A stretch of 64,000 nucleotides of DNA, taken from contig CAJLLL010000002.1 of assembly GCA_905207485.1 (NCBI GenBank), positions 10,015-74,014 of the forward strand, in the 5' to 3' direction. Numbering within the stretch: the first letter of the stretch is position 1; each line of letters starts with the position of its first letter. Shown one piece after another: positions 379 through 29,579 of this stretch. The notes under the pieces are model-generated. The model had not been told where the DNA came from and did no database searches. It saw nothing but the letters and a program-made list of their open reading frames with translations. Source of the stretch: an uncultured Phascolarctobacterium sp. GTDB lineage: Bacteria > Bacillota > Negativicutes > Acidaminococcales > Acidaminococcaceae. Position numbers and translations under genes: made by a program.

Positions 379-1113
379 TTATTTGTTCTTTTCTGCAAAA
401 AGTTTATTTATTGCTTCCAAATCTTCCGGAGTATCAATGCCTATGCCCTGAAAATCGCTTTCCAAAACTTTAATTTTATAGCCGTTCTGCAAAGCGCGGA
501 GCTGTTCAAGACCTTCTACCTGTTCAAGAATTGTAGGTTCAAGTGCGGCATATTGCAGTAAAAAGTCGCGGCGGTATGCATATACGCCAACATGTTTATA
601 AACTTTGGCTCCTGCAATTTTATTACGCGGATACGGAATAAGGCTGCGGGAAAAATACAGCGCGTAGCCGTTGTCATCGGTAACAACTTTAACGGCAGCA
701 GGGTCGTTGTATTCGCTTTCCTTCATCGGCACTTTCATGGTTGCCATTTTAAGTTCATCATTGCCTTCAAAAGCCTTTGCCAGACGGTCAATAATATCCG
801 GGTCAATCATCGGCTCATCGCCCTGTACATTAATAATAACATCAACATCAGGATACTGCATGGCAACTTCAGCCAAACGGTCAGTTCCGCTCGGGTGGTC
901 AGGCGAAGTCATTACCGCTTTGCCTCCAAAACCAACAACGGTATCATAAACCATTTCGTTATCTGTTGCCACAATTACGTCATCCGGCTCTTTTGCTTCG
1001 CAGGCACGCATATAAGTATGCTGAATCATCGGTTTGCCTGCAATCAGCGCCAGCGGTTTGCCCGGCAGGCGCGTAGAAGCATAACGCGCAGGAATTACAC
1101 ACAAAACCTTCAT
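379..1113 (-). CDS. kdsB: 3-deoxy-manno-octulosonate cytidylyltransferase (CMP-KDO synthetase)
   Basis: 244 aa, MKVLCVIPARYASTRLPGKPL...DVIINVQGDEP, a typical KdsB. It overlaps the upstream ORF by 4 nt. Confidence 0.9.
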   Translation of the reverse strand: MKVLCVIPARYASTRLPGKPLALIAGKPMIQHTYMRACEAKEPDDVIVATDNEMVYDTVVGFGGKAVMTSPDHPSGTDRLAEVAMQYPDVDVIINVQGDEPMIDPDIIDRLAKAFEGNDELKMATMKVPMKESEYNDPAAVKVVTDDNGYALYFSRSLIPYPRNKIAGAKVYKHVGVYAYRRDFLLQYAALEPTILEQVEGLEQLRALQNGYKIKVLESDFQGIGIDTPEDLEAINKLFAEKNK

Positions 1114-3638
1114 TGCTTTTTCGTCTCCTTTTGGATAGCACTGATAATTGTTTTCTCAAACAAATCATGCCCTTCCGTAATCATAATGTCCATATTTAAT
1201 ATGTACAGCGGCAAATCCCTGTTAAAGTAAATAAACTCTGTCGGAATTTTTACCGCGTCCTTGGCTGTTGTAATCAGCGCCACAGCCTCTTTGCTTGCCG
1301 CGCGTTCGCTGATATACTGCATTTCAATCATGCCGTAATCGTGATGGTCAGGGTAACGGATAGCTTCAAGAATATCCAGACCGATGCTTGCAAGCGTCTG
1401 CTCAAAAGAGGACGGGTTGCCGATAGCGGAAAAGACCATAACTTTTTTGCCTTCAAGCACAGAAAGGTCAAGCGTGTTTTCATGTATGCCTTTGTACCAG
1501 TCGGCAATTTCCACAAAGTTTTTAGGATGATGCACGCTTTCGATAACCGGAGCTTTGCCGTTGTATTTATCAAGCGTTTTGCGCAGGTTAATACGGCTGA
1601 ACTGTGAACTCTGGTCGGTTTTGGTCAGCAGGAAAAGCCCTGCCCTGTCAAGATGTTTTAACGGCTCGCGCAGAGTGCCGCGCGGCAGCAGGCTGCCGTT
1701 GCCGAACATGTTGTAGGTATCTACAAGCACTACGTCCAAATCGCGGTACAGATGCCAGTGCTGGTAACCGTCGTCCATGATGATAACTTCGGCATTTAAT
1801 TTATCAACGGCATACTGGCCTGTAACAGCACGGTTTTTACCAATGATAACAGGAATGCCTGGAAGGGTTTTAGCCATCAGGTAAGCTTCATCGCCTGCTT
1901 CATATGCTGTCATGAAAATCTTTTTGCCATCGCTGACAACGCCCAGCTCCTTATCCCAATGGGAACGGTAACCGCGGTTAAGAATAACAACACGGTAACC
2001 CATGTTTTTAATCATTGCGGCAACTTTCTGCGCAGTAGGTGTTTTACCTGTGCCGCCTACCGTAATATTGCCTATGGAAATTACGCAGCAGTCAAGTTTT
2101 TTCTGTTGGAAGAAACCAACATTATACAGCCACAGTTTGCTGCATACGCCGAATTCATACAAAATGGAGAAGAAACGCAGCACAAACAGCAGCACATTGC
2201 CCATCAGCGAAACTTTAGGCCCATGTACCATCTGGTACACATATTGGATAATGAAATCGCCATGGCGCAGGCTGATCCCGCCGTCATCCTTCAAGTTGCG
2301 GATATTGGTCGGATAACGCGCCATAATCGTAGCAGGAACCGTAGTAATACGCAGTAAATCTTCGAGATATTCAATACTGCGTACGGCAGCACCGCGGTTT
2401 TCTTTAATAACCTGCAAAGATGCAGCGCCCATTTTAGCACGGCGTTCATCGTTCTGAACAATATCAAGCAATTCTTTGGTAAGTTCCGGCACGCCGCTTA
2501 CCATTTTGCAGGCGCCAACCTTGCTTAACAAAGAATAGGAATCTTTAAAGTTCTGCATGCTGGGGCCAACCAGTATCGGTTTGGCATGCGCAGCAGGTTC
2601 CAGTACATTGTGCCCGCCGTGGTTAATCAGTGAGCCGCCGACAAATACAACATCGCCGACAGAATAAATTCTGCCCAGTTCACCAATAGTATCAATAACG
2701 AGTACCGGATAATGCGGGCGCGCACCGTCAATTTTCAGAAGTTTGGAACGCAAGCCTGCATCATAGCCAAAATTACCGGACAAACGCACAATTTCGTTAG
2801 TACGTTCCGGCTTGCGCGGAGCAATTACAAGGCGTGCATTGGGATAAGTTTCCCTTATTGTTTTAAAGGCTTCCAGCACAGCCTTCTCCTCAGTAGGATG
2901 CGTAGAACCGGCAACAATAACGGGATATGCCCCTTCAATGCCCAGTTCACGCTTGTAGGTATCCAAATCTTCCTGCGTTACCTCTGCATAAGTCTGGTCA
3001 AATTTGGTATTGCCAGTTACATAAATTTTGCTGGTATCTGCGCCCAAATGGCGGATATAATCGGCATCAATGCTGGACTGCATGCAGAAACGGCTTACAG
3101 TATTCAGCATATCATCCCAAATTCCCAAAAGGTAACGGTAAGTTTTAACAGATTTTTCGGAAATACGCCCGTTAACCATCATAACAGGAATATTGCGTTC
3201 ACGCAGAGCGCGCAGCAAATTAGGCCAGAGTTCCGTCTCTACCGGCATAAAAATGCGCGGACGAATACGTTTTACAACAGATTCGGATACGAAAGGCATA
3301 TCAAGCGGGAAATAAATAATAGCATCTGCTTCAGGAATAATCTGATGCGCCATATCATAACCGCCAACCGTAACGGCTGAAACAAGTATTGGTATATCCG
3401 GCATCGCCTTACGTATTTCTTTAACCAAAGGGCTCGTTGCAACTATTTCACCGACAGATGCGCCATGAATCCAGATGCAGCCTTTATGCGCAACGGCTTC
3501 AATTTCTTCATCGTGAATACCGCCGAGGCTTTGGCGAAGCCTTTTGGTAAAACCTTTTTCACAAATTGAACGGTAAATGAAATAGGGCATTACCAGGAAA
3601 AAAGCGCCAATCATCAATAAATTATAAATTATATACAT
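1110..3638 (-). CDS. waaA-lpxK: Fused 3-deoxy-D-manno-octulosonic acid transferase (WaaA/KdtA, N-terminal ~430 aa) and tetraacyldisaccharide 4'-kinase (LpxK, C-terminal ~330 aa)
   Basis: Single 842-aa uninterrupted ORF. The N-terminal half has the glycosyltransferase-30 KdtA signature (IWIHGASVGE...). The C-terminal half has the LpxK Walker A motif GNITVGGTGKTP. No stop codon lies between the two domains. Confidence 0.8.
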   Translation of the reverse strand: MYIIYNLLMIGAFFLVMPYFIYRSICEKGFTKRLRQSLGGIHDEEIEAVAHKGCIWIHGASVGEIVATSPLVKEIRKAMPDIPILVSAVTVGGYDMAHQIIPEADAIIYFPLDMPFVSESVVKRIRPRIFMPVETELWPNLLRALRERNIPVMMVNGRISEKSVKTYRYLLGIWDDMLNTVSRFCMQSSIDADYIRHLGADTSKIYVTGNTKFDQTYAEVTQEDLDTYKRELGIEGAYPVIVAGSTHPTEEKAVLEAFKTIRETYPNARLVIAPRKPERTNEIVRLSGNFGYDAGLRSKLLKIDGARPHYPVLVIDTIGELGRIYSVGDVVFVGGSLINHGGHNVLEPAAHAKPILVGPSMQNFKDSYSLLSKVGACKMVSGVPELTKELLDIVQNDERRAKMGAASLQVIKENRGAAVRSIEYLEDLLRITTVPATIMARYPTNIRNLKDDGGISLRHGDFIIQYVYQMVHGPKVSLMGNVLLFVLRFFSILYEFGVCSKLWLYNVGFFQQKKLDCCVISIGNITVGGTGKTPTAQKVAAMIKNMGYRVVILNRGYRSHWDKELGVVSDGKKIFMTAYEAGDEAYLMAKTLPGIPVIIGKNRAVTGQYAVDKLNAEVIIMDDGYQHWHLYRDLDVVLVDTYNMFGNGSLLPRGTLREPLKHLDRAGLFLLTKTDQSSQFSRINLRKTLDKYNGKAPVIESVHHPKNFVEIADWYKGIHENTLDLSVLEGKKVMVFSAIGNPSSFEQTLASIGLDILEAIRYPDHHDYGMIEMQYISERAASKEAVALITTAKDAVKIPTEFIYFNRDLPLYILNMDIMITEGHDLFEKTIISAIQKETKKQ

Positions 3639-12248: not shown

Positions 12249-13163
12249 TTATTTTGATTTTTTAAGCTCTTTTATTACCTCTTGGGTAATATCATCTGCT
12301 TTTACATTAACTTTTACTTTATTAAAAACAATGGTATAACCGCGTTCTTTGGCAAGATACGCTACCTTGCTTTCAATGTCATGCCTGATTTCCGAAGCAA
12401 TCTTGTCATTGCCTTCTTTTATTTTATCAAGACGTTTGTCAATTACTTCAAGCACTTTATTAAATGCTGCCGGTCCCTGCTGCAAATCCTTATCGTCTTT
12501 GGCAATATCGTCCTGCAGCTTGCCGTTCAGCTCATCGCGCAGCCCGGCAGCATATTCTGCTATGCGCTGCTTCATTGCTTCACGCTCCGGAGCAGTTTTT
12601 TCGGCAATAATTTCGCTGCGCCTTTTATTAAGTTCAGACATTTTTCCGTCCATCTCTGCGCGTATCGCACGCAATTCATCCTGCAGCGCCTGGCGCTGCT
12701 CAGGTTTAATGCGTACAGCTTCAAGCTGGAGGCGGATATTAAACATTCTCAGCTGATACTCATTTTCAATGCTTTCGCGTTCTTCGGCGAGTATTTCATC
12801 GGCCTCAGCCGCAGCTTTTTCCAAAACAGCCTGAAATTCATGCTGCTCTATTTCGTTCTTTGCATACATTGAAGTACGGTAATCGGCTTCGTAATAACTG
12901 CTTTTACTGTTCTGTTTAATCTTCTGCAAAAGCGCCAAGCCCTGTATCTGTTTGCGGGCAATATCAGCCTGCTGGTCACGGTATGCCAGAAGTTTGTCAT
13001 ATTCTGCCTGCCCCTGCTTCAGCGCTTCGCTGCGCGGATGGCTTTTTACCGCTTCTTCCCAGTTAATGTAGGCAATCTTTTCTCCTGAACCGGGCAGATT
13101 TCCGCAGGCGCTTACGCAAAATACGGCTATGAACATCAATAATACAATTTGCAGATAACGCAT
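12249..13163 (-). CDS. OmpH/Skp-like lipoprotein with extended coiled-coil
   Basis: 304 aa with a signal peptide and lipobox (VSAC). It has a long Glu/Arg/Lys-rich helical region, and its C-terminus (KERGYTIVFNK) matches the OmpH family. Confidence 0.6.
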   Translation of the reverse strand: MRYLQIVLLMFIAVFCVSACGNLPGSGEKIAYINWEEAVKSHPRSEALKQGQAEYDKLLAYRDQQADIARKQIQGLALLQKIKQNSKSSYYEADYRTSMYAKNEIEQHEFQAVLEKAAAEADEILAEERESIENEYQLRMFNIRLQLEAVRIKPEQRQALQDELRAIRAEMDGKMSELNKRRSEIIAEKTAPEREAMKQRIAEYAAGLRDELNGKLQDDIAKDDKDLQQGPAAFNKVLEVIDKRLDKIKEGNDKIASEIRHDIESKVAYLAKERGYTIVFNKVKVNVKADDITQEVIKELKKSK

Positions 13164-13782: not shown

Positions 13783-15045
13783 CTACAAATTTCCCACAAT
13801 ACGGAAATACGGCTTATCGTTGGAATAAACGTACTCAGCGCTCAAAAATTCGTGGATTCTGTAACGCACTGCAATTTCCGTTGTATCTGTACCGGAAAAA
13901 TACTCGGTGCGCAGCCGCCATTTGCTGGTAAAATCATATTCGCCGCGGAATACGTTTTGCCCGTCCGGACTGCGGCGCATATAACTTAACGTTGCCTTTC
14001 CCCAGTGCCTTGCATAACCCGCGGAAAAATCCCATTCCACATCATCCAGAGTTACGCCGGCTTCGCCAAAAATTTCATCTCGTTTGGAGATAAATTTGCC
14101 GATATGCGCACGGCCGGAAATATTATCTTCATTGCGTCCAATATCTCCGTAACCTTCAAACCAGATTTTGTACTTATCAGACCCCATGCCGATTTCTACA
14201 CCCAGCGTACTGCCGGGAACAAGTTTAACGGCAGGTGCAAGGTTATGCAGGCGTACCGATTTTTCATTCTGCAAATCTGTCAGCAGCATGCTTTCCAGTT
14301 CCTGCTGATGGCGTTTTACATATTCTACCGGCAGCCCGCGCAAAGCTTCCGCTTTTTCAGCATAACGCTGTTTCAAATCAAGCAGCAGAAGGTTCGGTAT
14401 GGACTCTGAGGTCATGGAATAATCTACGTTCTGCACAAGCTGTCCGACCGGATAAATTACAACCTGCACCACAGTGCGGTTATCTTCACGCACCACATCA
14501 ACGGCAGCTTTAAATTCCGGCAGTTTTTCCTCAACTTCGCTGCGGACAAGTCGGCGGAGTATACCGCCCGCCCAGTCATTAGCATCGACGGATGAACCCT
14601 TTATAATATACTCTATTCTTTCCTGCAATTCCGGCAGGCGCTTTTTTAAAAGCCCGGCTGTTCCTGCCTCCACGCCGGAAAACTGCAAATCAACAAATAC
14701 ATTTTCAACGGCTGCACTCCATGGCGCAACACGCATATCAATACTGGTAACGGCACCGGCATTTACACTGACGCTTTCCATCTGGTAACCCGTCAGCACG
14801 CGGTCTCCAACTTCTGCCAGGAGATGCTCGTAATCACCGCGCGCGGCGTTAATGTTAACGCTGTCTTTGTCAATAAAAAGCTGTTCTGCCACTACCTGCA
14901 TGCTTTTAGACATTCTATTTAACAGTACGCTGCTGGTACCGCCATTATCGGTAATATGCACCACCACGCTGTCAACAGGCTCTGCCCATGCAGGCGCAAC
15001 AGGCAGGCACAACAAACAGCACAGCAGAAACTTCCTTAACAACAT
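13783..15045 (-). CDS. Conserved hypothetical secreted protein of the OM cluster (function unknown)
   Basis: 420 aa with a cleavable signal peptide (LPVAPAWA-EP). The C-terminal ~150 aa show alternating hydrophobic/polar beta-strand periodicity. It sits 10 nt downstream of bamA on the same strand. Confidence 0.6.
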   Translation of the reverse strand: MLLRKFLLCCLLCLPVAPAWAEPVDSVVVHITDNGGTSSVLLNRMSKSMQVVAEQLFIDKDSVNINAARGDYEHLLAEVGDRVLTGYQMESVSVNAGAVTSIDMRVAPWSAAVENVFVDLQFSGVEAGTAGLLKKRLPELQERIEYIIKGSSVDANDWAGGILRRLVRSEVEEKLPEFKAAVDVVREDNRTVVQVVIYPVGQLVQNVDYSMTSESIPNLLLLDLKQRYAEKAEALRGLPVEYVKRHQQELESMLLTDLQNEKSVRLHNLAPAVKLVPGSTLGVEIGMGSDKYKIWFEGYGDIGRNEDNISGRAHIGKFISKRDEIFGEAGVTLDDVEWDFSAGYARHWGKATLSYMRRSPDGQNVFRGEYDFTSKWRLRTEYFSGTDTTEIAVRYRIHEFLSAEYVYSNDKPYFRIVGNL

Positions 15046-15055
15046 AACAGCCTAA

Positions 15056-17482
15056 TCAGAACTGTCCGCCGAAACTGAAGTGGAACATGCCACCGTCATC
15101 GCCCCAACCGTAATCCAGCTTAACAGGACCAAGCGGAGAATTAATACGCAGGCCTGCACCAAAACTGTTTTTAATCAGGCCCAGGTCAAAATCATCTTCA
15201 TGACGCTTATCCCATGCATAGCCATTATCGGTAAAGAGTACGCCCTGTACTTTTTTGATAATCGGGAAGCGATATTCCAAAGTTGCCTTCAGCATACTGT
15301 TGCCGCGGAACTGGTCATCTTCATAACCGCGCAGGGTATCACTGCCACCCATAGAGAAACGCTGGCTCAAAGGCATATCGCCGTCAGCCCAGCCTGCACC
15401 AAGGTTAAGCGCCCAAACATTTTCGCCACCGGCACGGTAGTAATAACGCCAGTCTGCCGTAAATTTGGTAAAATCAAAGTCACCGCCAAGGCCTGCCCAT
15501 TCTACACTGTAACCAATGCGTTTGCCTTCGTGCGGATCGTAAATGTTGTCACGCGAATCAAATACACGTCCGAATGTAATACTGCGTGTTACGCCAAAGT
15601 TTTCATCACGACGCTCTTTAGCAGTTGCAGGCATCCAGTCTTCATAATACTGGCTTCCTTGACTACCATCTGAAGGATGGAATCTATCTTCGTAATACTG
15701 GTCTATATCTCCTTCATATCCATCAGCCATACCTTCATAAATATCGTCACGGTTTTTCAGCGTTACATAGTTGCTGATAAACTCATTATCGGTTTTGCGG
15801 CTGAAGGTAAGTTCCTGACCACGTCGCTTTTTGTCATAACGTGCAATCTCATGCGCATCGATGTCATAATCTGCATATTCGTTGGTAACATCGTACAACA
15901 TTAAAGTTGCTTTGGTTTCTTTATCGTCAATCCACGGTTTTACATAAGTAAACTCGTAGTTCTTTTCATCTTCGCCGCCGAATTCCCAGCGTACATTAAC
16001 GCTGTCGCCGGTACCGCGGAAGTTTCTGTCACCAACAGAAACCATACCGATAAAGCCGTCAGCATTGCTGTAGCCTGCGCCGATGCCAAAAGTACCGGTA
16101 TTCATTTCCACAACGGTAATTTCAATTTCCACACCGTTCGGTTCCTGACCGGGATTCAGCTTAATGTTAACGTCTTCAAAATAACCGAGGTTATAAATGC
16201 GCTGCATGCTGCGGCGTGCGTCTTTGGCATTAAACGGCTCGCCTTTTTTCAGCTTCATTTCGCGCGTAATAACATAATCTTTGGTTTTTACATTGCCTTT
16301 TACTTTAAAATCCTCAACAATGCCTTCGTTAACCAGCAAAAGCAAAGTTCCGTCCGGCAGCATGCGTATATCAGCCACACGGGCAAGAATATAGCCCTGT
16401 TTGTTGTATTCTGCTTCCAGACGCTGCACTTTTACGTTAACGTCTTTAATATTAATGATTTCGTCTTTCGGCAAGTCAAGAATTTTTTCGATTTCAGAAG
16501 TAGAAATTTTGGTATTGCCTTCAACTTCAAGCTGTTTATAAACCGGGTTTTCCAATACATGATAAACAAGCTGCACGCCTTCCGGAACTTTTACAAACTC
16601 CGGCTGCAAATCATAATACCAGCCCAGGCCGTAAATTGCATGCAGGTCTTTGGCAAGGCCTTCCTGCGTAAGTTCCATGCCGGGTTTGGTAGTAATAACA
16701 GCTTCAATGTCTTCGGCTTTGGTAACTTTATTGCCAGTTACGGAAATTTTGGTAACAAACTGCCCAATATACGGAGCTGCCGGTTCACTGGCGCGCATCT
16801 GCTGCGCCACCGGCATATTTAAAACCGGTTCCTGTGCTACGGCATTGGTTTGAGGAGCCTGCTGCACAGCCTGCTGGGCTGTACGCTGCTGTTCAACTTC
16901 CGCTTCCCATTTCTGGCGTTCTTCCATTGTCATCGGACGCAGGCTGCCATCCGCCTCACGCACCATCGGTTCTTTAATTTCAGCAGGCTGATTTTCACCG
17001 GCAGTAACCTGCCCGTCGCTTTCATCTGCCGTAACAGCTTCATCCTGTACAGCAGCCGCGCCGCTTTCCTGTTCGGAAGCTGGCTGCTGCGCCGTTTCTT
17101 TCTGTTCCGGCTGTTCTACGCCGCTGCCGCCTTCACGCACAACGCCTTTGCCGGGAACAATTTCCACAATTCTGCCGCTGCCGGATTTGCCGCCGCTTTT
17201 ATAATTAGGATCAGAAATATCTTCAGCCGGATTATTGTGCATATAATAGGTATATTTACCGTCTTTACCCTTTTTAGGAAGGGATTTGCCTGATTCTTCC
17301 TGTGCCTTTCTGGCCTGTTCCAGCGCCTTCTGGCTGACAATCTGTTCCTTGCCGCCGATGGTCATTGTCTGGTTTGCAACTACATCTGCTGCATTTTGAG
17401 CCTGTTCGGCAGCCCATACCGGAGCTGCCATCAGCATAGCTGCCAGACTTAAAGACAACTGTGCATATTTTCTCTTGTTCAT
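15056..17482 (-). CDS. bamA: Outer membrane protein assembly factor BamA (Omp85 family)
   Basis: 808 aa with a signal peptide, a ~230-aa low-complexity region, then POTRA domains and a C-terminal Omp85 barrel ending ...FHFSFGGQF. Confidence 0.9.
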   Translation of the reverse strand: MNKRKYAQLSLSLAAMLMAAPVWAAEQAQNAADVVANQTMTIGGKEQIVSQKALEQARKAQEESGKSLPKKGKDGKYTYYMHNNPAEDISDPNYKSGGKSGSGRIVEIVPGKGVVREGGSGVEQPEQKETAQQPASEQESGAAAVQDEAVTADESDGQVTAGENQPAEIKEPMVREADGSLRPMTMEERQKWEAEVEQQRTAQQAVQQAPQTNAVAQEPVLNMPVAQQMRASEPAAPYIGQFVTKISVTGNKVTKAEDIEAVITTKPGMELTQEGLAKDLHAIYGLGWYYDLQPEFVKVPEGVQLVYHVLENPVYKQLEVEGNTKISTSEIEKILDLPKDEIINIKDVNVKVQRLEAEYNKQGYILARVADIRMLPDGTLLLLVNEGIVEDFKVKGNVKTKDYVITREMKLKKGEPFNAKDARRSMQRIYNLGYFEDVNIKLNPGQEPNGVEIEITVVEMNTGTFGIGAGYSNADGFIGMVSVGDRNFRGTGDSVNVRWEFGGEDEKNYEFTYVKPWIDDKETKATLMLYDVTNEYADYDIDAHEIARYDKKRRGQELTFSRKTDNEFISNYVTLKNRDDIYEGMADGYEGDIDQYYEDRFHPSDGSQGSQYYEDWMPATAKERRDENFGVTRSITFGRVFDSRDNIYDPHEGKRIGYSVEWAGLGGDFDFTKFTADWRYYYRAGGENVWALNLGAGWADGDMPLSQRFSMGGSDTLRGYEDDQFRGNSMLKATLEYRFPIIKKVQGVLFTDNGYAWDKRHEDDFDLGLIKNSFGAGLRINSPLGPVKLDYGWGDDGGMFHFSFGGQF

Positions 17483-17497
17483 TCAAATCCTCCCTGT

Positions 17498-17968
17498 TCA
17501 CTCAGCATCCTGCAGAACCTGCCTGCCTGTTCTGACAAGCTGCTGCATATCTTCTTCAGCTAAATAATTTGGATAACTGGTATTGCTGTTAATATTTAAC
17601 TCAGCCGCTGCCCGCTCTGTTTGCTGCGGCACCGGCTGTGCTGTAACTGTTTTGTCGGGCATCGGCGCATTTTCCTGCTGCTGCACTGAGGCTGAAGCAG
17701 GAATATTTGCAACTTCGTCCTGTGAAATGCCTGCATAAAGCCAGCCGCCATAACCAGCAAGCGCCAAAAGCACCGCCAAAATAGCTGCCAGCTTCTGCCT
17801 GTTCCAAACCGACACCAGCCCGCGTTTTTCACGCAGATAGCGGATTGACGCTTCTGCCAGCATCAAATCCAGTTCGCCGCGCAGTCCGTTGTTTTTGCGG
17901 AAGCTGCGGCTTGCATTGTCCAAGCTGCATTTCACATCATCGATATTATCATAAATGTCTTTCGCCAC
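17498..17968 (-). CDS. Membrane protein, candidate anti-sigma factor
   Basis: About 156 aa starting from the second GTG, which has an AAAGGAG RBS 7 nt upstream. It has a cytoplasmic N-terminus, one TM segment (LAAILAVLLALAGYGGWLYAG), and a Gln/Pro-rich extracytoplasmic tail. It lies immediately downstream of a sigma factor gene. Confidence 0.45.
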   Translation of the reverse strand: MAKDIYDNIDDVKCSLDNASRSFRKNNGLRGELDLMLAEASIRYLREKRGLVSVWNRQKLAAILAVLLALAGYGGWLYAGISQDEVANIPASASVQQQENAPMPDKTVTAQPVPQQTERAAAELNINSNTSYPNYLAEEDMQQLVRTGRQVLQDAE

Positions 17969-18119
17969 CGCTAAAACTCCTTTCTGCACAGATTAATTGA
18001 ATATATAATCCGTTTTTTCAGGATATTTTATCACGGTGAAATTTATTATATTTTCCCATATTTCAGCAATAAATGCAATAATCTGCAAAAAAAAGCCTGA
18101 CTTTACTGTTTTTCTTGCA

Positions 18120-18755
18120 TTAGCTTCTTTTTAAATCTGCAATAAAATGTGAGAGCATGCCGCGGATGCGTTTAACCCCGCGCTTTTGCAAACGATAGAT
18201 ATGCCCCAGACTGACGTTAATGCTGTCAGCCATATCGGCTGCGCTGCGGTCTTCAAGGTAAATGCCTGTCAAAACCTGCTGCTCTTTTTCCGGCAGGCGG
18301 TGCAAGGCCTGCGCCACCCTGTCGGTAATCATGCTCAGCTCAGCTTCTTCAAAAGGCGTACGCCCGGATGCTGCCAGCACATCTGCCCAGGCAACGCCGG
18401 CGGCATTGGTATCGTCCAGCGAAAAACTTCTGCCGTTGTCGTCCTGCTCCAAAAAATCAAGCATTCTGCCGCGGATGCGGTGCATGGCAAAAACGCTGAA
18501 CGCTACGCCTCGCGTATAATCATAACGCTCCGCAGCCTCCAAAAGCCCAAGCGTGCCTTCCTGCACCAGTTCCATCAGCTGAGGCTCCGGCAGTTTAAAG
18601 CCCGCCGCAATTTTAAACACTAACGGCTGGTAAGAAGTTATTAACTTGTTATAGGCCTCACGGTCGCCTCCGGCACTGAGCTGCCAAAGCTCCATTTCTT
18701 CCTCCCGGGAAAGAAGCGGCGTTTTCTGCAGCTCTGCCAGATATTCTTTCAGCAT
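18120..18755 (-). CDS. RNA polymerase sigma factor, sigma-70 family (group 3-like)
   Basis: About 211 aa starting from Met3, which has the better RBS spacing. Region 2 and 4 motifs are present (LSREEEMELW, LVFKIAAGF, GLLEAAERYD, and a C-terminal HTH SINVSLGHIYRLQKRG). Confidence 0.8.
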   Translation of the reverse strand: MLKEYLAELQKTPLLSREEEMELWQLSAGGDREAYNKLITSYQPLVFKIAAGFKLPEPQLMELVQEGTLGLLEAAERYDYTRGVAFSVFAMHRIRGRMLDFLEQDDNGRSFSLDDTNAAGVAWADVLAASGRTPFEEAELSMITDRVAQALHRLPEKEQQVLTGIYLEDRSAADMADSINVSLGHIYRLQKRGVKRIRGMLSHFIADLKRS

Positions 18756-18800: not shown

Positions 18801-21800
18801 TTAAAACGTAACTTTATACTCCATGCCATACCAGTCTTCAGTCGTGTCGTAATCTTTGTTGCGCTCGTAGTTAATGCTCATATGGCGCGAAAGGTCATAC
18901 TGGGCAAAAATACTTTCATGCTCGCTGTCATCGCTTACGGTATAGCCAACCAGCAAATTATCCGTTAAATACTTGCTCACAAGCAGATTATACTGGTCTT
19001 TTTCATCCTCGGTAAGCTCGCCGCTTTCCTGTGACATGCTATGGCCCGTGCGCAGCCTGCCCGAATAAATCATAAATTCATTCAGCCCCAGGGTTTCCTT
19101 AAAGATTTCTTCCACGTCTCCAAGCACGGTCATTTCCAAACCAACAGTCATCAGGCTCTGGAAATCATCCTGCGTTACGCCCTGGTCAGCACCAGTTACT
19201 TCACGCTGCAGGGTCAGCATCTTAATAATCTGGTCTTTCGTCAGCGACGGGTCACTGCGCAGAATCATCTGCATCTGCTCCAGCGGCCCTGTTACACGCA
19301 GGAAAATATCATATCTTCTGAACCGTGCCGTTGCATCAAGGTTAACAGTCGGCAAAACATCACCGGGAACAGGCCATGCCACAGATGCATTGTGGATTTC
19401 AAACGGCGTGCGCAGATAAGTAATAGTGCCTTTATCCGCTTTCACGTTGCCATCTATATTAGTATACACTGTACTGCCTGTAACATGCAATCCTCCGGAA
19501 AGCCACAAATCATACAAATATTTGTTGTACAAATGGATTTTCGGGCCGAGTGTAACCTTAACATCCAGGCCGTAATTGCTGCTGCCTTCAGAAAGTTCAG
19601 GTATGGTAGGCATGTTTACCAGCACATCATCCAAACGGATATCAGCCTTAATGAACGGACGGTATCCTACACCGCCGCGGCCGCCGTTGGCGCTGTCCGT
19701 GCGGGTAAAGTAACGCTGCGGGCTGATGCCTGCCGTGCCGTTAATGCGTCCTGTAAAAATTTCGGAAGCAAATTCCGCATCTTTGAACAACGCATTAATA
19801 ATATAGGTTTTACCCTCATCAGCACGCAAAGCATAGTTACCGGATGCCGTTACCGTACCATCGCCCATCTGCATGGAAAACTCGTTAAGGGCAATTTCAT
19901 TGCCGGTAAAATCAACATCCAAATTGATATTGTCAAAAATAGTATAAGCATCACGCAATTTCAGAGAACCGCCGTGCATAACAACTTCGCCATATACCAA
20001 AGGCTCTTCCAAAGTACCGGAAAGCGTTACAGAACCGAGCGTTTCGCCTACGCCCCATTCAACCATCGGCGTCAGCAGATGCAGCAGCCCTAAACGTGCG
20101 TTATCAAGGTTCAGCTTGATATTCATTGCTGCTGCCGGGTTGCGGCGCTGTTCCTTGCTGCGCAGCAGGTCAAGCGGCATATCTCCGGATGCCGTCAGTT
20201 TGTAAATATCCTTGTTAATCTGCGCATGGTCAAGTTTTAATACATCGTTGGCAAGGCTCATCTGCATCGTCAAAGCATCAAAGCCAATACCTTCCACCGA
20301 ACCTTCCGTAAGTTCCATCTTTGCGGTGCCCTGCGGATTTTCAATACTGCCGGACAAATCAACAGCCATATCAATCTTGCCGCCTACGGCCAGCGGATAA
20401 TCCAACAGCGCCGGCACAATGGCAGGGTTGGCATTATATGCCCTTGCTTTGATATCCAGCGAATGATTACGCAGATTTACCCAGCCTCCGGCCGTCAGCG
20501 AACCGGGTTCAGGAGCATCTTTAACGCCTTTTTGTTCTTCAGGCACGCTTTCTGTCAGCTTAAGTTCATCAAAATTCAGCACGCCGTTTTGCAGGCGTCC
20601 TTTAAAGCGCATGTAATCATAACTTACATCTTTAACTTTAATATCAGATACACGCATATCGGCAAAAATGCCGCTGCCTTTGCCGCGAGGATTAATGTTC
20701 AAACGTCCGTCGGCCACGCCGTCAACATCAAGATTAACCTTTGCCATCTTCATAATGGAACGCAGATTGCCGTACATAAATTCTACTTTGCCGGTAAGGG
20801 CCTGCTCTACAGCATCCAAATTCAGCTCAGCGGCAAACATACCGTCCGGCGATTGTTCAAAGGATGCTTCAACATGGTTATTATGCTGCCCGTCCGCAGT
20901 CAGCGTACCAATAATATTTTTCAGTTCTTCACCATTAATGAGCACTGAATCACTGTTGATACTACCGTCAAAACGCGGCTGTGCCAGCGTGCCGGTTAAG
21001 CTGCCGTGCGCACTTACAAAACCATCCAAAGCAACGGTTTCATCCCTTATGGGCAAAGTGCTTAAATCCATATCGGTAATATCTACCGTAAAATCAAGGT
21101 TCTGCGCCGCATCCATTGTACCGCTTAAAGAAGCCTCTGTTGACAGCGCCTTAATATAGCCGCCGGTTAAACGCAGGCTGCCATCCGGCGCATAGTAATA
21201 CGCTGCACTAATCTGGTCTATTAAAAATCCCTCAGCACTGCCGTCCGTAAGCATTACACTGCCTTCTACCGAAGGAGCGGAAAGCGGGCCCATGATGCTT
21301 ATTTCGTTATCAACATTGCCGGTAAGTTTTACATCCGGCGCAGCCACCGCTACCAAAGGTTCCGCGCGGATGCCGCTGGTACTTACCGTAATGCCGAGTA
21401 CCGGTTCCGCACCGCCTATATCAACAAAACCATTAATAAGGTTGTAGCCCTGCTCCATTTCCACACGGTAATCCGTAAGCTGAACTACGCTGTCAACCAT
21501 GGAAATTTTGCCGTACGCTTCCGGGAAAACAAGACCGGCAATATGTACATTTTTAACCTGCGTGCTGGCATAAAAATCAATGCCGCTCAAATCGCCGCTA
21601 AAATTAAACCCTGCCGATGCAGTACCGCTGCCGTTCTGTCCGGCGGCAGCAAAAAAGCTGTCCAGCGGAAAATCAGACATTCTGCCGCTGCCGCTGAAGC
21701 TGCCGTCAAACGAAGCCTGAACCGTCAAATTCATTGCACCGCCGTCACCGGCAAAGGCAGCAAACTTTTCAACTACAACTTTATCGCCGCTGACTTCTGC

Positions 21801-23090
21801 TTCAAAATCTACATTGTTCATCAGCAAATCACGCCAGCCCAGGCGGCCCATGTTGCCCGCAACGGTAAGCTTTGTTTCGCCCTTGGTTCCTGTCTGGCCA
21901 TGTACGGCAAGCAGGCCGTCCAGAGCAATAGTATCCGCCGGATAATCCGGCAATGCCAAACCGCTGATGCCGTTTGCATTAAGCACGGCGAAAATTTCAC
22001 CATCATTGATATTATATTCACCGTCAAGGCGCAGATGCCCGCCTGCTATATCGGCACCTGCTTCATCAAGCATTACGCGGCTTTCAACAACGGTAAAAGG
22101 CACACGCATATTGCTAATCTTTGTGCCGTTAAACGCTAAAGTTTCAGCCTCAAGCTCGCCTTTACCCTGTATGTTTTCCAAATCGGCAAAATCAATATCG
22201 CAATTGAGCGTAGCAGTATTTTCGCCAACAGTCAGCGCCAGGTCTTCCGCTTCAACATCACGGTCACTGGCCTTAAGCCCGCCTGCCAGTTTAACAGGCA
22301 GCGGTTCACCGCCCAGCAGGGCATCTGCCGATAAAGCAATTTGCCCTTTGCCGCTCAATTTAGTATTTTCACCATCGTTTTCCCAAATCAGGTTCAACCC
22401 TTCAACCTGACCGGCAAAATTTTGTATTGGCGCATACGCCGCCGCAAAATCGCCAAAATCAGTCAAGCCAAATTTTTCAGTTTTTAAAGAAAGCTGCCCA
22501 TGCGCGTTGGTATCAACAACGCCGCTGACTTTCAATTCATCGCCGCCGTAAGTTACAGTGCCGTCAACTGCAAAATCCGGGTTTGCCCCGCCATCTACAG
22601 AAGCATTAACGCCAAAATCCCAGCTGCCATGCGGAGTTGCAATATGCACCTCTGCATCATTTACGGCAAGATACCCATAAAAAGGAGTCTCCGAAGAATC
22701 GGACGGTTTTAAAAAATTGCGCAGGTTCCATTCATCCTGCTCGTTCATCTGTAAATAAAGCTGCGGAGATGTTAAAACAACCTCGCTTAAAGCACGTTCA
22801 GGCGCAACAAAAGCACGCAGCGGTGAAATTCCAAATTTTGCTTCCGGAATTTCAGCAATGCGCGCGCCATCAGCACCGTTTACCTTTATGCCGTAGGCAG
22901 TGAACTCCAGCCTGCCGTTCCAGTCAAGACGTTCCAGCGTTGCAGTACCGTTAATATAATTTTGCGACATGGTTTTTACAAGCTGCGGCACCTGTGCCAG
23001 ATACTGCGGGGCAATAAACTTTACAGCCCACATATAAAGCGCTGCCGTTGCCAGCAAAACCACTATAAAAATTTTTAAAATTCTATTCAT
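18801..23090 (-). CDS. tamB: Translocation and assembly module protein TamB (AsmA-like, DUF490)
   Basis: 1429 aa with an N-terminal TM anchor and a long beta-rich repetitive body; the C-terminal region matches the TamB/DUF490 family. Confidence 0.85.
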   Translation of the reverse strand: MNRILKIFIVVLLATAALYMWAVKFIAPQYLAQVPQLVKTMSQNYINGTATLERLDWNGRLEFTAYGIKVNGADGARIAEIPEAKFGISPLRAFVAPERALSEVVLTSPQLYLQMNEQDEWNLRNFLKPSDSSETPFYGYLAVNDAEVHIATPHGSWDFGVNASVDGGANPDFAVDGTVTYGGDELKVSGVVDTNAHGQLSLKTEKFGLTDFGDFAAAYAPIQNFAGQVEGLNLIWENDGENTKLSGKGQIALSADALLGGEPLPVKLAGGLKASDRDVEAEDLALTVGENTATLNCDIDFADLENIQGKGELEAETLAFNGTKISNMRVPFTVVESRVMLDEAGADIAGGHLRLDGEYNINDGEIFAVLNANGISGLALPDYPADTIALDGLLAVHGQTGTKGETKLTVAGNMGRLGWRDLLMNNVDFEAEVSGDKVVVEKFAAFAGDGGAMNLTVQASFDGSFSGSGRMSDFPLDSFFAAAGQNGSGTASAGFNFSGDLSGIDFYASTQVKNVHIAGLVFPEAYGKISMVDSVVQLTDYRVEMEQGYNLINGFVDIGGAEPVLGITVSTSGIRAEPLVAVAAPDVKLTGNVDNEISIMGPLSAPSVEGSVMLTDGSAEGFLIDQISAAYYYAPDGSLRLTGGYIKALSTEASLSGTMDAAQNLDFTVDITDMDLSTLPIRDETVALDGFVSAHGSLTGTLAQPRFDGSINSDSVLINGEELKNIIGTLTADGQHNNHVEASFEQSPDGMFAAELNLDAVEQALTGKVEFMYGNLRSIMKMAKVNLDVDGVADGRLNINPRGKGSGIFADMRVSDIKVKDVSYDYMRFKGRLQNGVLNFDELKLTESVPEEQKGVKDAPEPGSLTAGGWVNLRNHSLDIKARAYNANPAIVPALLDYPLAVGGKIDMAVDLSGSIENPQGTAKMELTEGSVEGIGFDALTMQMSLANDVLKLDHAQINKDIYKLTASGDMPLDLLRSKEQRRNPAAAMNIKLNLDNARLGLLHLLTPMVEWGVGETLGSVTLSGTLEEPLVYGEVVMHGGSLKLRDAYTIFDNINLDVDFTGNEIALNEFSMQMGDGTVTASGNYALRADEGKTYIINALFKDAEFASEIFTGRINGTAGISPQRYFTRTDSANGGRGGVGYRPFIKADIRLDDVLVNMPTIPELSEGSSNYGLDVKVTLGPKIHLYNKYLYDLWLSGGLHVTGSTVYTNIDGNVKADKGTITYLRTPFEIHNASVAWPVPGDVLPTVNLDATARFRRYDIFLRVTGPLEQMQMILRSDPSLTKDQIIKMLTLQREVTGADQGVTQDDFQSLMTVGLEMTVLGDVEEIFKETLGLNEFMIYSGRLRTGHSMSQESGELTEDEKDQYNLLVSKYLTDNLLVGYTVSDDSEHESIFAQYDLSRHMSINYERNKDYDTTEDWYGMEYKVTF

Positions 23091-23232
23091 AATCTGCCTC
23101 CGCAGAAAAATTATACTTTAACAGTTTATGTATTCTACGTTAAAAATAATCTTCCTGCCGTTTTGAAACAGAAAAAGCACTGCACCTTAAATTTTACAAG
23201 ATGCAATGCTTTTTAATGTAATTTAATTTATA

Positions 23233-24852: not shown

Positions 24853-26121
24853 TTAAAAATATGTACGCACGCCAACATAAGTATTGCTCTTGCTGCCATG
24901 CCTCAAATCTGTCTGCTCGCCCAAAAGCGATAAGTTATCGTTCAGTTTCAGTTCACCGCCGAGTTTAACTTTGGCATCGTCAAAATCATATACCTGCGTA
25001 TATAAACGGAAGCGGTCGGCTATATCATAACCAAGCCCTACACCAAACTCGCCCTGCATTGCACCCATGCTTACATCGGCGGCGCCCAGTTCCTTGCCAA
25101 ACTGCAAATCAAGTTTGTTGCTGTCGCCAAGGTCATAGCCGCCCAGGTAAAAAAAAGTATCTTCCTGCGGGCGCAGGGTTACGCCCAAATTGCTGCGCCA
25201 GTCGCCGCCTTCCGCGCTATGCGTTACATCGGCGCTGATTTCAGCAGTTTCCAAAACGCCCAGCATGCGGTTAGCCTTTTCGCTTGCTTCGCGGGCATTA
25301 TGCAGCGTCGCCTTTAAATCATCCTCAGTCTGCGGGTCACTGGCAACTTTTTCCAGCAGCTTGCTTGCTTCTTCAATGCGGGCGCTTGTTTTCGCCATAT
25401 TTTCAATAATAAGTGCAAAATTCTGCCCTGCGTGCCCTTCATTTACTTCAGTAATAATATTTTCCATGCTGTCTGCTGTCTGGTTCATACGTGCAGACAT
25501 TTCGCTGAGCTGTTTAACCATAACGTTAATTTGCTGCTGGTTATCAACCGCCACATCCGCCATTACTTTGGTAAAGGCGTTCATGTTGGCGCTGATTTCC
25601 TTCATGTTCAAAAACCCTTCGCGCATCGATTGCTGCACTTCCGGGTCGCCAAATACATTATCAAGAGCATCGGCAATGTTTTCTACTTTTTTAAGCACTT
25701 CTCCGGAAGAACTCATAAAAGTATCAAACCCGCCTCCCGGCGTGCCGTTTACTCTGGCTCCATCTTCCAAAAAGCCGCTTACTGCCCGCGGGGGAGGCTG
25801 AATATCTACAAATTTTTCACCCAAAATCCCGTCTGCGCCAATGGTGAACAGAGCTTCCTGCGGAATCTGCACATTGTCGTTAATTTCAGCAACAACTTCA
25901 ATACCATCATCATTAACGGTAAGGCCTTTAACGGTGCCAACCTGCACGCCCGCATAACGCACCATATTGCCTGCCATCAGCCCGCCAACCTGCGGATAAT
26001 CAATGGTTATATCGTATTTATCGCTGCCGAAACTGAACGTTCCCAAAAAGGTTATCATCGCCGCCAGAATGGCTGCGCCGCCCAGTGTCACTGCGCCTAC
26101 TTTAACTTCGCTGGAACTCAT
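24853..26121 (-). CDS. mlaD: MlaD (MCE-domain) protein with long C-terminal extension
   Basis: 422 aa with an N-terminal TM helix, an MCE domain, and a long helical region. The C-terminal ~100 aa have beta-strand periodicity and end ...YVGVRTYF with a terminal aromatic residue. Confidence 0.85.
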   Translation of the reverse strand: MSSSEVKVGAVTLGGAAILAAMITFLGTFSFGSDKYDITIDYPQVGGLMAGNMVRYAGVQVGTVKGLTVNDDGIEVVAEINDNVQIPQEALFTIGADGILGEKFVDIQPPPRAVSGFLEDGARVNGTPGGGFDTFMSSSGEVLKKVENIADALDNVFGDPEVQQSMREGFLNMKEISANMNAFTKVMADVAVDNQQQINVMVKQLSEMSARMNQTADSMENIITEVNEGHAGQNFALIIENMAKTSARIEEASKLLEKVASDPQTEDDLKATLHNAREASEKANRMLGVLETAEISADVTHSAEGGDWRSNLGVTLRPQEDTFFYLGGYDLGDSNKLDLQFGKELGAADVSMGAMQGEFGVGLGYDIADRFRLYTQVYDFDDAKVKLGGELKLNDNLSLLGEQTDLRHGSKSNTYVGVRTYF

Positions 26122-27766: not shown

Positions 27767-29446
27767 TCAGTCTGTAACGTCAACCATAATGTCTGCCGTA
27801 CCGTCCACAATAAAGTTTACTGTGGTTTTCTGTTTGGCAGGAGTGCCTGCAAGTGCCGCAGCAAAGCCTGTATCCTGCTGCTCTGCCATCATATCAGGAT
27901 TTGGCAGCGCAGCAATGTCAACGATAATTTCATTATTCTGGTCAGCGTTGTTGATATCTGCAATAAAGTCTTTTAAAGTGCGGCGCTGAGGCTGTTTGGC
28001 AGCAGGTATGCCTTCTTCCTGCTGGCGTTTCATCAGTTCCTGCATCCACGCCAGACTGCTGCCGCCGCGCACATTAAGCGCCAGTTTGCCGGGCTGCTGC
28101 TGTTTTGGCACGGTAAACTGCACCGTTTTGGTTATTTTTGCCGAGCGGTAAGGCTGCATTTCCACATCAATGTTCAGCACCTCGCCCGGATGCACTTCCA
28201 GTTTTTGCGGACGGGCAGAAATAATCTCCGCTACTTCCGGCTCCGTGCCGATAGCGACATTCGCTTCAATGTTATAAACATCTATTTTTTCAAACTTATT
28301 CTGCGCAAGCAATGTTGCCGCCTGCACCAGTTCCTGGCTAATCATTTTTAAAATGCCGGTATCGGCATAATACATATTTTCACGTTTAATTTCAATCTGC
28401 TCGCCGTTTGCGCTGCGCCCGTCAATGCGGAAATCAAAACGCGCCGTACCGCCGCCTTCCCTGTCGGCAACACGGGTAACGGTGTTATAGGTAACGGCAT
28501 CAACCATGGCAGGCAAAAGCACATCGTCGTCAATAAGTTCGGTGCGTGCGCTGCCGTTTACCCCGCGCGAAGTATCCGTAACCGATACATACATGGGTAT
28601 AACCTTAGGCTGCGCGCCGATTTCAGCAGCAATGCCCGCGCTGCGGTCCTGCGTTACGGTGCCGATGGTCTCACCAAGATTACCAACTTTATAAGCGCTC
28701 TGCAAATTGGGCAGTGAAGTTAAAATCCACGCCCTTTCCAAAAAGTAATTGCTGTCGCCGCGCTGCATAAACGGATGCCCAAATGCCAGCAAGGTGCCGT
28801 CATCACCCATCCATGTTACCGTTCCCAATGCGCCAAGGCGGATATCGCCGCGTATCAGTGATACGCCGATAGCACTGCCCGGTTCAAGGGCTTTATCAGA
28901 TGTGAAATTACCGCTTCCGCCTGCGCCAGTTGCGCTAAGCCCAAGCGGAGCAAGTTTTTGGTTTAAATAATCAAGCCCGGCAGAAGTAAAGCCTCCTGCC
29001 ATCAGCATAGTGCTTTTAGGAATAAACTCCGAAGGGCGCGGGCTTGTTTCGTTCAACAAATCAAGCATCCTCCCGATAGGAGTTAAAAAGCAGTAGTGCG
29101 GGTCATTAAATTCCTTACCAAAAGCAACGGCGCCTACAAGACGGCCATCAATATAAACCGGGCTGCCGCTCATGCCCTGCGCCACGCCGCCGCTGTTTTC
29201 AATCAGGCTGCCGCCTGTACGCACAAGAATGCTGTAGCCGCTTGCCTCGCTGCCGGTAACGCCAATAACTTCCACGTCAAAATTTTCAACGGTATCGCCG
29301 CTCACAACGGTTTTGCCAATGCCGTGCATGCCAGGGCGCACATCTTCAACCGGCATCAGCGGCACATTAGCCGCACACACCAAAGGCAGGCTTAGCAGCA
29401 AAAGAATATTAAAAATAAATGATAATACTAATTTTTTTGTTCTCAT
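27767..29446 (-). CDS. SpoIVB-type serine peptidase (MEROPS S55 family)
   Basis: Signal peptide present. The catalytic serine motif GMSGSPVYIDGRLVGAVAFG is characteristic of SpoIVB/S55. The start was chosen at the internal Met (MRTKKLVL...); the full ORF extends to 29515. Confidence 0.65.
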   Translation of the reverse strand: MRTKKLVLSFIFNILLLLSLPLVCAANVPLMPVEDVRPGMHGIGKTVVSGDTVENFDVEVIGVTGSEASGYSILVRTGGSLIENSGGVAQGMSGSPVYIDGRLVGAVAFGKEFNDPHYCFLTPIGRMLDLLNETSPRPSEFIPKSTMLMAGGFTSAGLDYLNQKLAPLGLSATGAGGSGNFTSDKALEPGSAIGVSLIRGDIRLGALGTVTWMGDDGTLLAFGHPFMQRGDSNYFLERAWILTSLPNLQSAYKVGNLGETIGTVTQDRSAGIAAEIGAQPKVIPMYVSVTDTSRGVNGSARTELIDDDVLLPAMVDAVTYNTVTRVADREGGGTARFDFRIDGRSANGEQIEIKRENMYYADTGILKMISQELVQAATLLAQNKFEKIDVYNIEANVAIGTEPEVAEIISARPQKLEVHPGEVLNIDVEMQPYRSAKITKTVQFTVPKQQQPGKLALNVRGGSSLAWMQELMKRQQEEGIPAAKQPQRRTLKDFIADINNADQNNEIIVDIAALPNPDMMAEQQDTGFAAALAGTPAKQKTTVNFIVDGTADIMVDVTD

Positions 29447-29579
29447 AAATCCCTCAGTTAATGCAAAACCGGCATGGGTACAACACCGCACGCCGGTTAA
29501 ATTTGGTTTAAACAAACAGCCGCACGCAGATTGGCATGCATGGCTATATTATACTATTTAAAAATTTTTCTGGCAAGCA

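Follow-up and report, generated by a model that had tools for sequence, protein, structure and literature searches.

A conserved sigma factor and membrane protein pair between tamB and bamA in the outer-membrane cluster of Negativicutes, a candidate sigma/anti-sigma module

A functional precedent for the locus considered here comes from Escherichia coli, where bamA, skp, and lpxD are driven by sigma-E and the gene immediately ahead of bamA is rseP. The 64,000-nucleotide (nt) stretch of an uncultured Phascolarctobacterium sp. that we analyzed (hereafter the window; contig CAJLLL010000002.1) carries, between tamB and bamA, a gene for a sigma-70-family protein and a gene for a small single-pass membrane protein. 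Both are located inside the large outer-membrane (OM) cluster already described for Negativicutes (PMC5007114; PMC10665443). No description of the pair was found in the literature, the main papers on the Negativicutes envelope and OM cluster included, nor was an envelope-stress or OM-biogenesis regulator found to be described for Negativicutes. The pair is apparently a previously undescribed sigma/anti-sigma-like module with an atypical sigma factor and a new partner family. We favor, with slightly less than even confidence, a reading in which the two proteins are a dedicated sigma factor and its membrane-tethered anti-sigma factor, which would control the bamA-skp-lpx operon and be part of the ancestral OM cluster of Negativicutes.

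The likeness to sigma-E and RseA (rpoE-rseABC of E. coli) is one of design. Both systems pair an alternative sigma factor with a single-pass membrane protein whose N-terminus is inside and would hold the sigma factor, and both have a glutamine-rich extracytoplasmic part, a functional link to bamA-skp-lpxD, and a regulatory gene immediately upstream of bamA. The parts, however, differ. Unlike sigma-E, the sigma factor here is not of the extracytoplasmic function (ECF) type in sequence, which is group-3-like with a region 1.2 signature. The membrane protein lacks similarity to RseA_N and RseA_C, and its cytoplasmic domain of ∼57 amino acids (aa) has two helices versus four in class I anti-sigma domains. 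No RseB, DegS, or RseP partner was identified, and the genes do not form one autoregulated operon because the sigma gene lies upstream of the candidate promoter.

The arrangement is conserved well beyond the window. When one genome was scanned per species, 109 relatives emerged, and 80 loci were retrieved. All 80 of these Acidaminococcaceae species loci share the order tamB, sigma gene, spacer, membrane protein gene, bamA, and a gene for a 420-aa protein. The same order is present in Megasphaera elsdenii (Veillonellales), in Pectinatus frisingensis (Selenomonadales), and in further Negativicutes contigs, and in every context examined the membrane protein was seen only beside the sigma factor. 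Conservation across three orders (Acidaminococcales, Veillonellales, and Selenomonadales) indicates that the pair was inherited within the cluster and was not inserted between tamB and bamA, as the initial annotation had phrased it. The same annotation also gave a gap of 130 nt between the two genes, a value that belongs to a mechanically called 163-aa open reading frame (ORF) starting at 17989; the actual spacer is 151 nt. Its placement of the pair is otherwise correct, in that both genes are real and sited on the minus strand inside the OM cluster, with the membrane protein gene directly upstream of bamA. In Veillonella parvula, the locus tags of TamB and BamA are consecutive, so this species appears to lack the pair (PMC5491611). 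Dialister likewise appears to be without it.

The sigma factor is a genuine two-domain protein of the sigma-70 family and a member of no named family. As first proposed, it has regions 2 and 4, with Pfam matches above cutoff to Sigma70_r2 (PF04542; 57 bits, E 1.6e-15) and Sigma70_r4 (PF04545; 41 bits, E 1.3e-10). Translation probably starts at the second ATG, 8 nt past a AAGGAAGG ribosome-binding site; this start is taken as the likely one because the spacing of that site and the lengths of homologues (209–217 aa) fit a protein of 211 aa. The protein is 63% identical to the sigma factor of P. faecium. In the AlphaFold2 (AF2) model, with a mean predicted local distance difference test score (pLDDT) of 83.7, sigma-2 with region 1.2 (residues about 2–105) and sigma-4 (134–210) are joined by a low-confidence linker of ∼28 residues (106–133). 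No sigma-3 domain was found in this model, and matches of hidden Markov models (HMMs) are likewise split in two. The architecture is ECF-like, comprising only sigma-2 and sigma-4, yet the sequence is group-3-like with a region 1.2 signature. Region 1.2 itself gives a sub-threshold Pfam match (20 bits vs. a 22-bit cutoff), PF00140 is precomputed on several orthologues, and the motif RIRGxMxDxL is present, whereas the best ECF-type subfamily model in NCBIfam reaches only 60 of the 222 bits set as its cutoff. Fold neighbors of the model are sigma-32, sigma-S, SigB, SigD, and SigH of Bacillus subtilis, and WhiG, not ECF sigma factors, with a Foldseek probability of 1.0 to many sigma chains. The best relatives are FliA/WhiG, RpoH, RpoS, and SigB, the best specific models and structures belong to sigma factors of groups 1–3, and the initial assignment of a non-ECF sequence is borne out. 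The recognition helix is unusual.

FliA and WhiG, each with its own anti-sigma factor (FlgM and RsiG), are the closest relatives in sequence and share RIRGxMxDxL. The sigma factor might therefore be a degenerate flagellar or developmental one, of the FliA/WhiG or sporulation type, that sits in the cluster by chance and has motility or sporulation targets. The nearest solved sequences are indeed WhiG (6PFV) and then FliA (6PMI), with E values of about 1e-17, and the best named models are those of FliA/WhiG, RpoH, and SigB/F/G. The scores are nevertheless far below the respective cutoffs: 83.4 versus 189.6 bits for TIGR02479 and 79.8 versus 201 bits for NF005413 (FliA/WhiG), 82.5 versus 323 for TIGR02392 (RpoH), 74.8 versus 234 for TIGR02980 (SigB/F/G), and 50–59 versus 250–350 for SigE/K models. 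The sole NCBIfam model above cutoff is that of the generic sigma-70 superfamily, TIGR02937, and HMM classification thus places the protein in neither a flagellar nor a sporulation family. FliA and WhiG also have the sigma-3 domain that is missing here. The position between tamB and bamA is fixed in three orders that include nonmotile, nonsporulating genera, among them Phascolarctobacterium and Megasphaera, and the motif in the spacer differs in its spacing and in the CGA core from TAAA-N15-GCCGATAA, the FliA/WhiG promoter. A chance placement of a degenerate sigma factor is accordingly very improbable and much less likely than the two other alternatives weighed below. With respect to partners, FlgM and RsiG are small and helical, and RsiG is an antiparallel helical hairpin, which is a point of likeness; they are soluble, however, whereas the partner here is anchored in the membrane and lacks the cyclic di-GMP motif of RsiG.

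The membrane protein is likewise widespread, with a family of 531 clusters at 50% identity, and a protein identical to that of the window is already annotated in public assemblies (P0121), human-gut assemblies included. The most divergent members of the family derive mostly from metagenome assemblies. Its GTG start lies 7 nt past AAAGGAG. Lysine and arginine residues just before the transmembrane (TM) stretch and acidic residues after it indicate an N-in, C-out orientation, and the AF2 model agrees with the single-pass, anti-sigma-like topology that was initially assigned. In that model, a helix (residues 2–25) is followed by a turn and a second helix (29–81) that runs straight into the membrane (pLDDT 85–96), and a third helix spans residues 138–155. 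A cytoplasmic N-terminus and one TM helix are hence predicted here too, but the extracytoplasmic tail, originally described as short, is ∼75 aa long and ends in a conserved helix. The linker to this helix is rich in proline, glutamine, alanine, and glutamate, is predicted to be disordered (pLDDT 41–60), and varies in sequence and in length, from about 55 to 110 aa in relatives. The C-terminal helix is basic and amphipathic; its family consensus, EMQxLVRxAxKxLRG, is kept in distant members, with L144, V145, R146, R149, and L152 invariant in the alignment. It may serve in periplasmic sensing or docking. Conservation is highest in the N-terminal hairpin (residues 1–57), which has a nearly invariant core. 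Its cytoplasmic location points to a conserved ligand in the cytoplasm, and the hairpin is a candidate sigma-binding domain.

The N-in single-pass topology and the adjacency to a sigma gene in all loci examined are those of a membrane-anchored anti-sigma factor, but the protein falls outside described families. Class I anti-sigma N-terminal domains (ASD, zf-HC2, RskA, and RseA_N) are about 80–90 aa long, often with an HxxxCxxC zinc motif. The cytoplasmic part here is too short for this class, and the protein has no zinc motif: its sole cysteine (C14) is not conserved, and the cytoplasmic part has no conserved cysteine or histidine. Pfam and NCBIfam searches matched no family (E up to 0.01–0.1), every known anti-sigma family included. 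A profile search of the PDB gave no match beyond a weak one to DotF over the TM helix and linker, and a fold search returned only generic coiled coils (E > 1). The initial description of a partner with neither a zinc-binding nor an RseA motif is therefore upheld, and assignment to an unrelated known family, which would have spoken against it, found no match in Pfam, NCBIfam, or the PDB.

Two other groups of anti-sigma factors are closer in layout. Class II anti-sigma domains, such as CnrY of CnrH-CnrYX and NepR, bind their sigma factors through a very short two-helix cytoplasmic element, and in CnrY this element leads directly into a single TM helix, with a sensor-contacting segment in the periplasm. 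A two-helix cytoplasmic element is predicted here too; the sigma factors bound by class II domains are ECF, however, and the membrane protein here has no detectable sequence or profile similarity to these domains. SigI and RsgI of Bacilli and Clostridia resemble the pair in combining a non-ECF two-domain sigma factor with a single-pass membrane anti-sigma factor, and RsgI has a cytoplasmic N-terminal domain of roughly 50 aa and an extracellular sensing part. Unlike RsgI, the membrane protein lacks RsgI_N (PF12791), and no SigI-type match is among the top NCBIfam families of the sigma factor. Moreover, sigI and rsgI are co-transcribed, and the SigI promoter consensus is unrelated to the motif found here.

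Rates of evolution associate the hairpin with the sigma factor. Pairwise protein distances were computed for 65 nonredundant loci, and each protein pair was corrected by regressing out the mean distance of the three other proteins. The partial correlation between hairpin and sigma factor (r = 0.55) is second only to that between BamA and TamB (0.58), which are known partners. Correlations of the hairpin with BamA (−0.20), TamB (0.08), and the 420-aa protein (0.11) are low, as are those of the sigma factor with the three envelope proteins (0.15–0.19). The signal sits in sigma-2 (0.52), not in sigma-4 (0.12), and is absent from the TM segment. Covariation of the hairpin with the sigma factor and not with BamA or TamB is suggestive but not decisive, given that pairwise distances lack independence.

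These data bear on a second alternative, in which the membrane protein, co-expressed with bamA, assists the BAM/TAM or lipid-transport machinery as an inner-membrane accessory and touches an envelope component with its C-terminal helix, and the sigma factor is regulated in some other way. The close spacing to bamA and the putative promoter that parts the gene from the sigma gene would suit such a role, as would a C-terminal periplasmic helix conserved across orders in a protein that matches no anti-sigma family. Negativicutes are not known to have the BamB–E lipoproteins, and undescribed accessories are therefore to be expected. On the other hand, conservation peaks in the cytoplasmic hairpin instead of the periplasmic part, and hairpin rates follow the sigma factor and none of BamA, TamB, and the 420-aa protein. 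Furthermore, the protein is found only beside the sigma factor, and both genes are apparently absent together from V. parvula, which keeps TamB and BamA (PMC5491611). We consider an accessory role unlikely.

The spacer between the two genes contains a single conserved block. In the loci of all 80 relatives, it is 139–230 nt long and A/T-rich, with a sequence that is otherwise unalignable. The block, GAYTATA, is located 35–113 nt before the start codon, and 15 nt separate it from an A-rich box, GTGAAAA, on its upstream side. The distance from the element down to the GTG start is 42 nt in the window. Position frequencies were derived from 73 distinct sequences, and 64 spacers served to build a position weight matrix (PWM) with which the window and all loci were scanned. 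Read as a −10 hexamer, GAYTAT keeps A(−11) and T(−7), the positions needed by all sigma-70-family proteins, but has G at −12 instead of T. This G is present in 79 of 80 Acidaminococcaceae loci as well as in variants from other orders: Megasphaera has GATACT, Pectinatus has GATATT (by our reading), and variants occur in other Negativicutes contigs too. The T at the −9 equivalent and the A at the −6 equivalent are near-invariant, unlike in TATAAT, and conservation does not extend to the TTG of a −35 box. A simple scan with the sigma-70 consensus (TTGACA-N17-TATAAT) found no minus-strand promoter in the spacer.

The motif is also nearly unique to the spacer. Over all loci, the PWM gave 70 matches in spacers versus 5 elsewhere, or one motif per 12-kb locus. 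In the window, the sole other match above 16, at 57860, sits inside the coding sequence of an aldehyde dehydrogenase; a match at 23094 overlaps the start codon of tamB, and a strict pattern search returned just two sites, the one in the spacer and another in antisense orientation within tamB. The initial annotation had suggested looking for a shared promoter motif upstream of bamA, skp, ompM, and mla. One such site exists, ahead of the membrane protein gene and bamA, but neither the PWM nor the pattern search found a copy upstream of mla, ompM, or skp within the window. With a single copy in 64 kb, a regulon cannot be demonstrated. Of the consensus sequences of alternative sigma factors that were compared (sigma-28/D, H, B, F/G, E/K, and 32), none fits in both sequence and spacing, and the motif is thus assigned to no sigma class.

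Upstream of GAYTATA, A-tract, TATAAT-like, and TAAAAT-like boxes recur at about −22, −33, −43, and −54 from its G, with a period of 10–11 bp (window 18035–18100, minus strand; spacers of loci L003–L082). Phased A-tracts of this kind would fit intrinsically bent upstream DNA or tandem regulator-binding sites. The spacer reads as an internal promoter with bent DNA upstream, predicted to serve the membrane protein gene and the long bamA-lipid A operon. Terminator-like hairpins follow the sigma gene in 11 of 79 loci, compared with 44 of 261 control segments (17%), and no conserved terminator was found; the sigma and membrane protein genes may therefore also be co-transcribed by read-through. A further alternative is that the pair is a sigma/anti-sigma module but that the promoter is an ordinary housekeeping (sigma-A) one for the bamA-lpx operon, with the targets of the sigma factor elsewhere in the genome. 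GTGAAA and GATTAT each match four of six consensus positions and could form a weak promoter of the housekeeping sigma factor, sigma-A promoters of Firmicutes typically have phased A-tracts upstream, and the motif has a single copy in the window. In a subset of species, a perfect TGnTATAAT is present about 43 nt further upstream, and Pectinatus also has one further upstream in its spacer; housekeeping transcription of the operon therefore clearly exists. Against a sigma-A promoter, a G in place of T at −12 is kept in nearly all Acidaminococcaceae loci, in a spacer that is otherwise unalignable, as well as in the variants of Megasphaera and Pectinatus; T and A are near-invariant at the −9 and −6 equivalents, and no −35 TTG is conserved. 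The upstream TATAAT box, at −40 to −44, occurs in only about a third of loci and was rejected as a universal second promoter. Overall, we judge it rather unlikely that the conserved motif is simply a housekeeping promoter.

Other features of the spacer are confined to fewer loci. An inverted repeat of 11 bp, CTATAATCATG ... TGTGATTATAG, brackets the A-rich box in five related spacers (L037, L040, L041, L049, and L081) and is not conserved outside this Phascolarctobacterium subgroup; a perfect extended −10 (TGCTATAAT) forms its upstream arm. An RNA structure formed by the repeat TATAATC...GATTATA (up to 11 bp) was considered and rejected, as its position is fixed only in one Phascolarctobacterium subgroup and inconsistent elsewhere. 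An Rfam search of the spacer yielded only sub-threshold noise and no family; the folding z-score of the window spacer is −2.6.

Returning to the sigma/anti-sigma reading that we favor, the sigma factor would be made as the last gene product of the mlaEFD-tolC-tamB transcription unit and tethered to the inner membrane through the cytoplasmic hairpin (57 aa) of its partner, the membrane protein. The latter would reach into the periplasm through its long disordered linker, and the conserved basic helix at the end would read some state of the envelope or dock to an envelope partner. If this contact were lost, or the linker proteolysed, the sigma factor would be freed and would fire the conserved noncanonical promoter of the spacer, with its A-rich box, N15, and GAYTAT. 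The membrane protein gene would be transcribed more, providing negative feedback because the putative anti-sigma factor is the first gene behind the target promoter, and so would the long bamA-skp-lpxD-lpxC-fabZ-lpxA-lpxB-msbA-kdtA operon. A bolder version, possible but more doubtful than the core reading, is that the ancestral OM cluster of diderm Firmicutes has its own envelope-sensing circuit that evolved independently of sigma-E/RseA. It would consist of a sigma-28-like sigma factor that has lost sigma-3, a new two-helix membrane anti-sigma factor, and a periplasm-spanning tail that reports the status of the OM or BAM, with release driving one dedicated promoter for the bamA-skp-lipid A operon and the anti-sigma gene.

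Several observations weigh against the favored reading. Sigma/anti-sigma pairs are usually co-transcribed as one unit, but here a promoter-bearing spacer parts the two genes, and the membrane protein gene is tightly linked to bamA. The hairpin resembles no anti-sigma family in profile or structure searches. The covariation could reflect a difference between cytoplasmic and envelope compartments, since the loci hold no cytoplasmic control gene. As noted, the promoter has features of a weak housekeeping one, and no second intergenic copy of its motif was found in 64 kb that include mla, ompM, and lpx genes. Lastly, V. parvula makes an OM, apparently without the pair (PMC5491611).

If the sigma/anti-sigma reading is correct, OM assembly in diderm Terrabacteria would gain its first regulatory handle, with a logic convergent with that of sigma-E/RseA but built from unrelated parts, and a new small anti-sigma fold would be added. 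Culturable species, such as M. elsdenii, Phascolarctobacterium faecium, and Pectinatus, carry the pair, which makes the reading directly testable, and the genetic model V. parvula, apparently without it, offers a natural comparison. The siting in an ancient OM-biogenesis cluster would be of interest to specialists.

Coordinates of the pair, its parts, and its flanking genes are listed below. The gene order, 5' to 3' and all on the minus strand, is S55 peptidase gene, mlaE, mlaF, an elongated mlaD, tolC, tamB, sigma gene, spacer, membrane protein gene, and bamA. The sigma gene starts 45 nt past the tamB stop and is the last gene after mlaE-mlaF-mlaD-tolC-tamB. Only 15 nt separate the stop of the membrane protein gene from the start of bamA, which, judged by ORF spacing and Pfam matches, comes second, after the membrane protein gene, in a tightly packed run. 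After bamA, this run continues with the gene for the 420-aa protein, three skp-like (Skp/OmpH-like) genes, lpxD, an acyltransferase gene, lpxC, and fabZ, followed by lpxA, lpxI, lpxB, msbA, a fused kdtA-lpxK, and kdsB.

Table 1. Features of the tamB-bamA region in the window (positions count from its first nucleotide)
Feature	Position	Strand	Basis
Sigma-70-family gene, 211 aa	18120..18755	minus	Pfam, NCBIfam, AF2 model
Spacer, sigma gene to membrane protein gene, 151 nt	17969..18119	minus	Spacer lengths, alignment
Promoter-like element, GTGATAAAA-N15-GATTATA	18004..18034	minus	Spacer alignment, PWM 26.1
Membrane protein gene, 156 aa	17498..17968	minus	ORF, alignment, AF2 model
Residues 1–57, cytoplasmic helical hairpin, core RGELDLMLAEA	17798..17968	minus	Alignments, AF2
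Residues 58–81, single TM helix	17726..17797	minus	Sequence, AF2, alignment
Residues 82–137, extracytoplasmic linker	17558..17725	minus	Alignments, pLDDT
Residues 138–156 and stop codon, C-terminal helix, EDMQQLVRTGRQVLQDAE	17498..17557	minus	Alignments, AF2
bamA (Omp85 with POTRA domains)	15056..17482	minus	Pfam
tamB	18801..23090	minus	Pfam

Two neighbors of the pair deserve mention. The 420-aa protein encoded directly after bamA (13783–15045, minus strand) has an N-terminus resembling a signal peptide and matches nothing in Pfam or NCBIfam. Counterparts of 420–435 aa occupy the same place in Megasphaera, Pectinatus, and all Acidaminococcaceae loci, and its evolutionary rate covaries with those of TamB (0.44) and BamA (0.36); it may be an uncharacterized component of OM assembly. 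Directly upstream of mlaE, a gene (27767–29515, minus strand) encodes 582 aa with an S55 peptidase domain of the SpoIVB type, in a nonsporulating lineage. SpoIVB of Bacillus is a signaling protease in a membrane-bound sigma pathway, and it is pure speculation, by analogy, that the S55 peptidase protein could be a candidate protease for the membrane protein. Its counterpart in V. parvula, Vpar_0521, has been noted as conserved among diderm Firmicutes and of no known role (PMC5491611).

Other genes of the cluster have unusual forms. The fused kdtA-lpxK (1110–3638, minus strand) is a single 842-aa ORF with a Kdo transferase domain (Glycos_transf_N) and LpxK. The middle one of the three skp-like genes (12249–13163, minus strand) is twice as long, encoding 304 aa with a weak OmpH match (25 bits, below cutoff), and a long middle gene is also present in Megasphaera and Pectinatus, there without a Pfam match. 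MlaD (24853–26121, minus strand), at 422 aa, is far longer than a plain MCE domain, and its length fits the elongated trans-envelope MlaD reported for V. parvula (PMC10665443). Last, several genome-bin records (L010, L019, L035, L037, L040, L049, L058, and L076) carry the Negativicutes OM cluster under foreign titles, namely Candidatus Fusicatenibacter intestinipullorum, Segatella copri, Bacteroidaceae, Escherichia coli, Ruminococcus intestinalis, and Acholeplasmataceae; these contigs are likely mis-binned or mislabeled.

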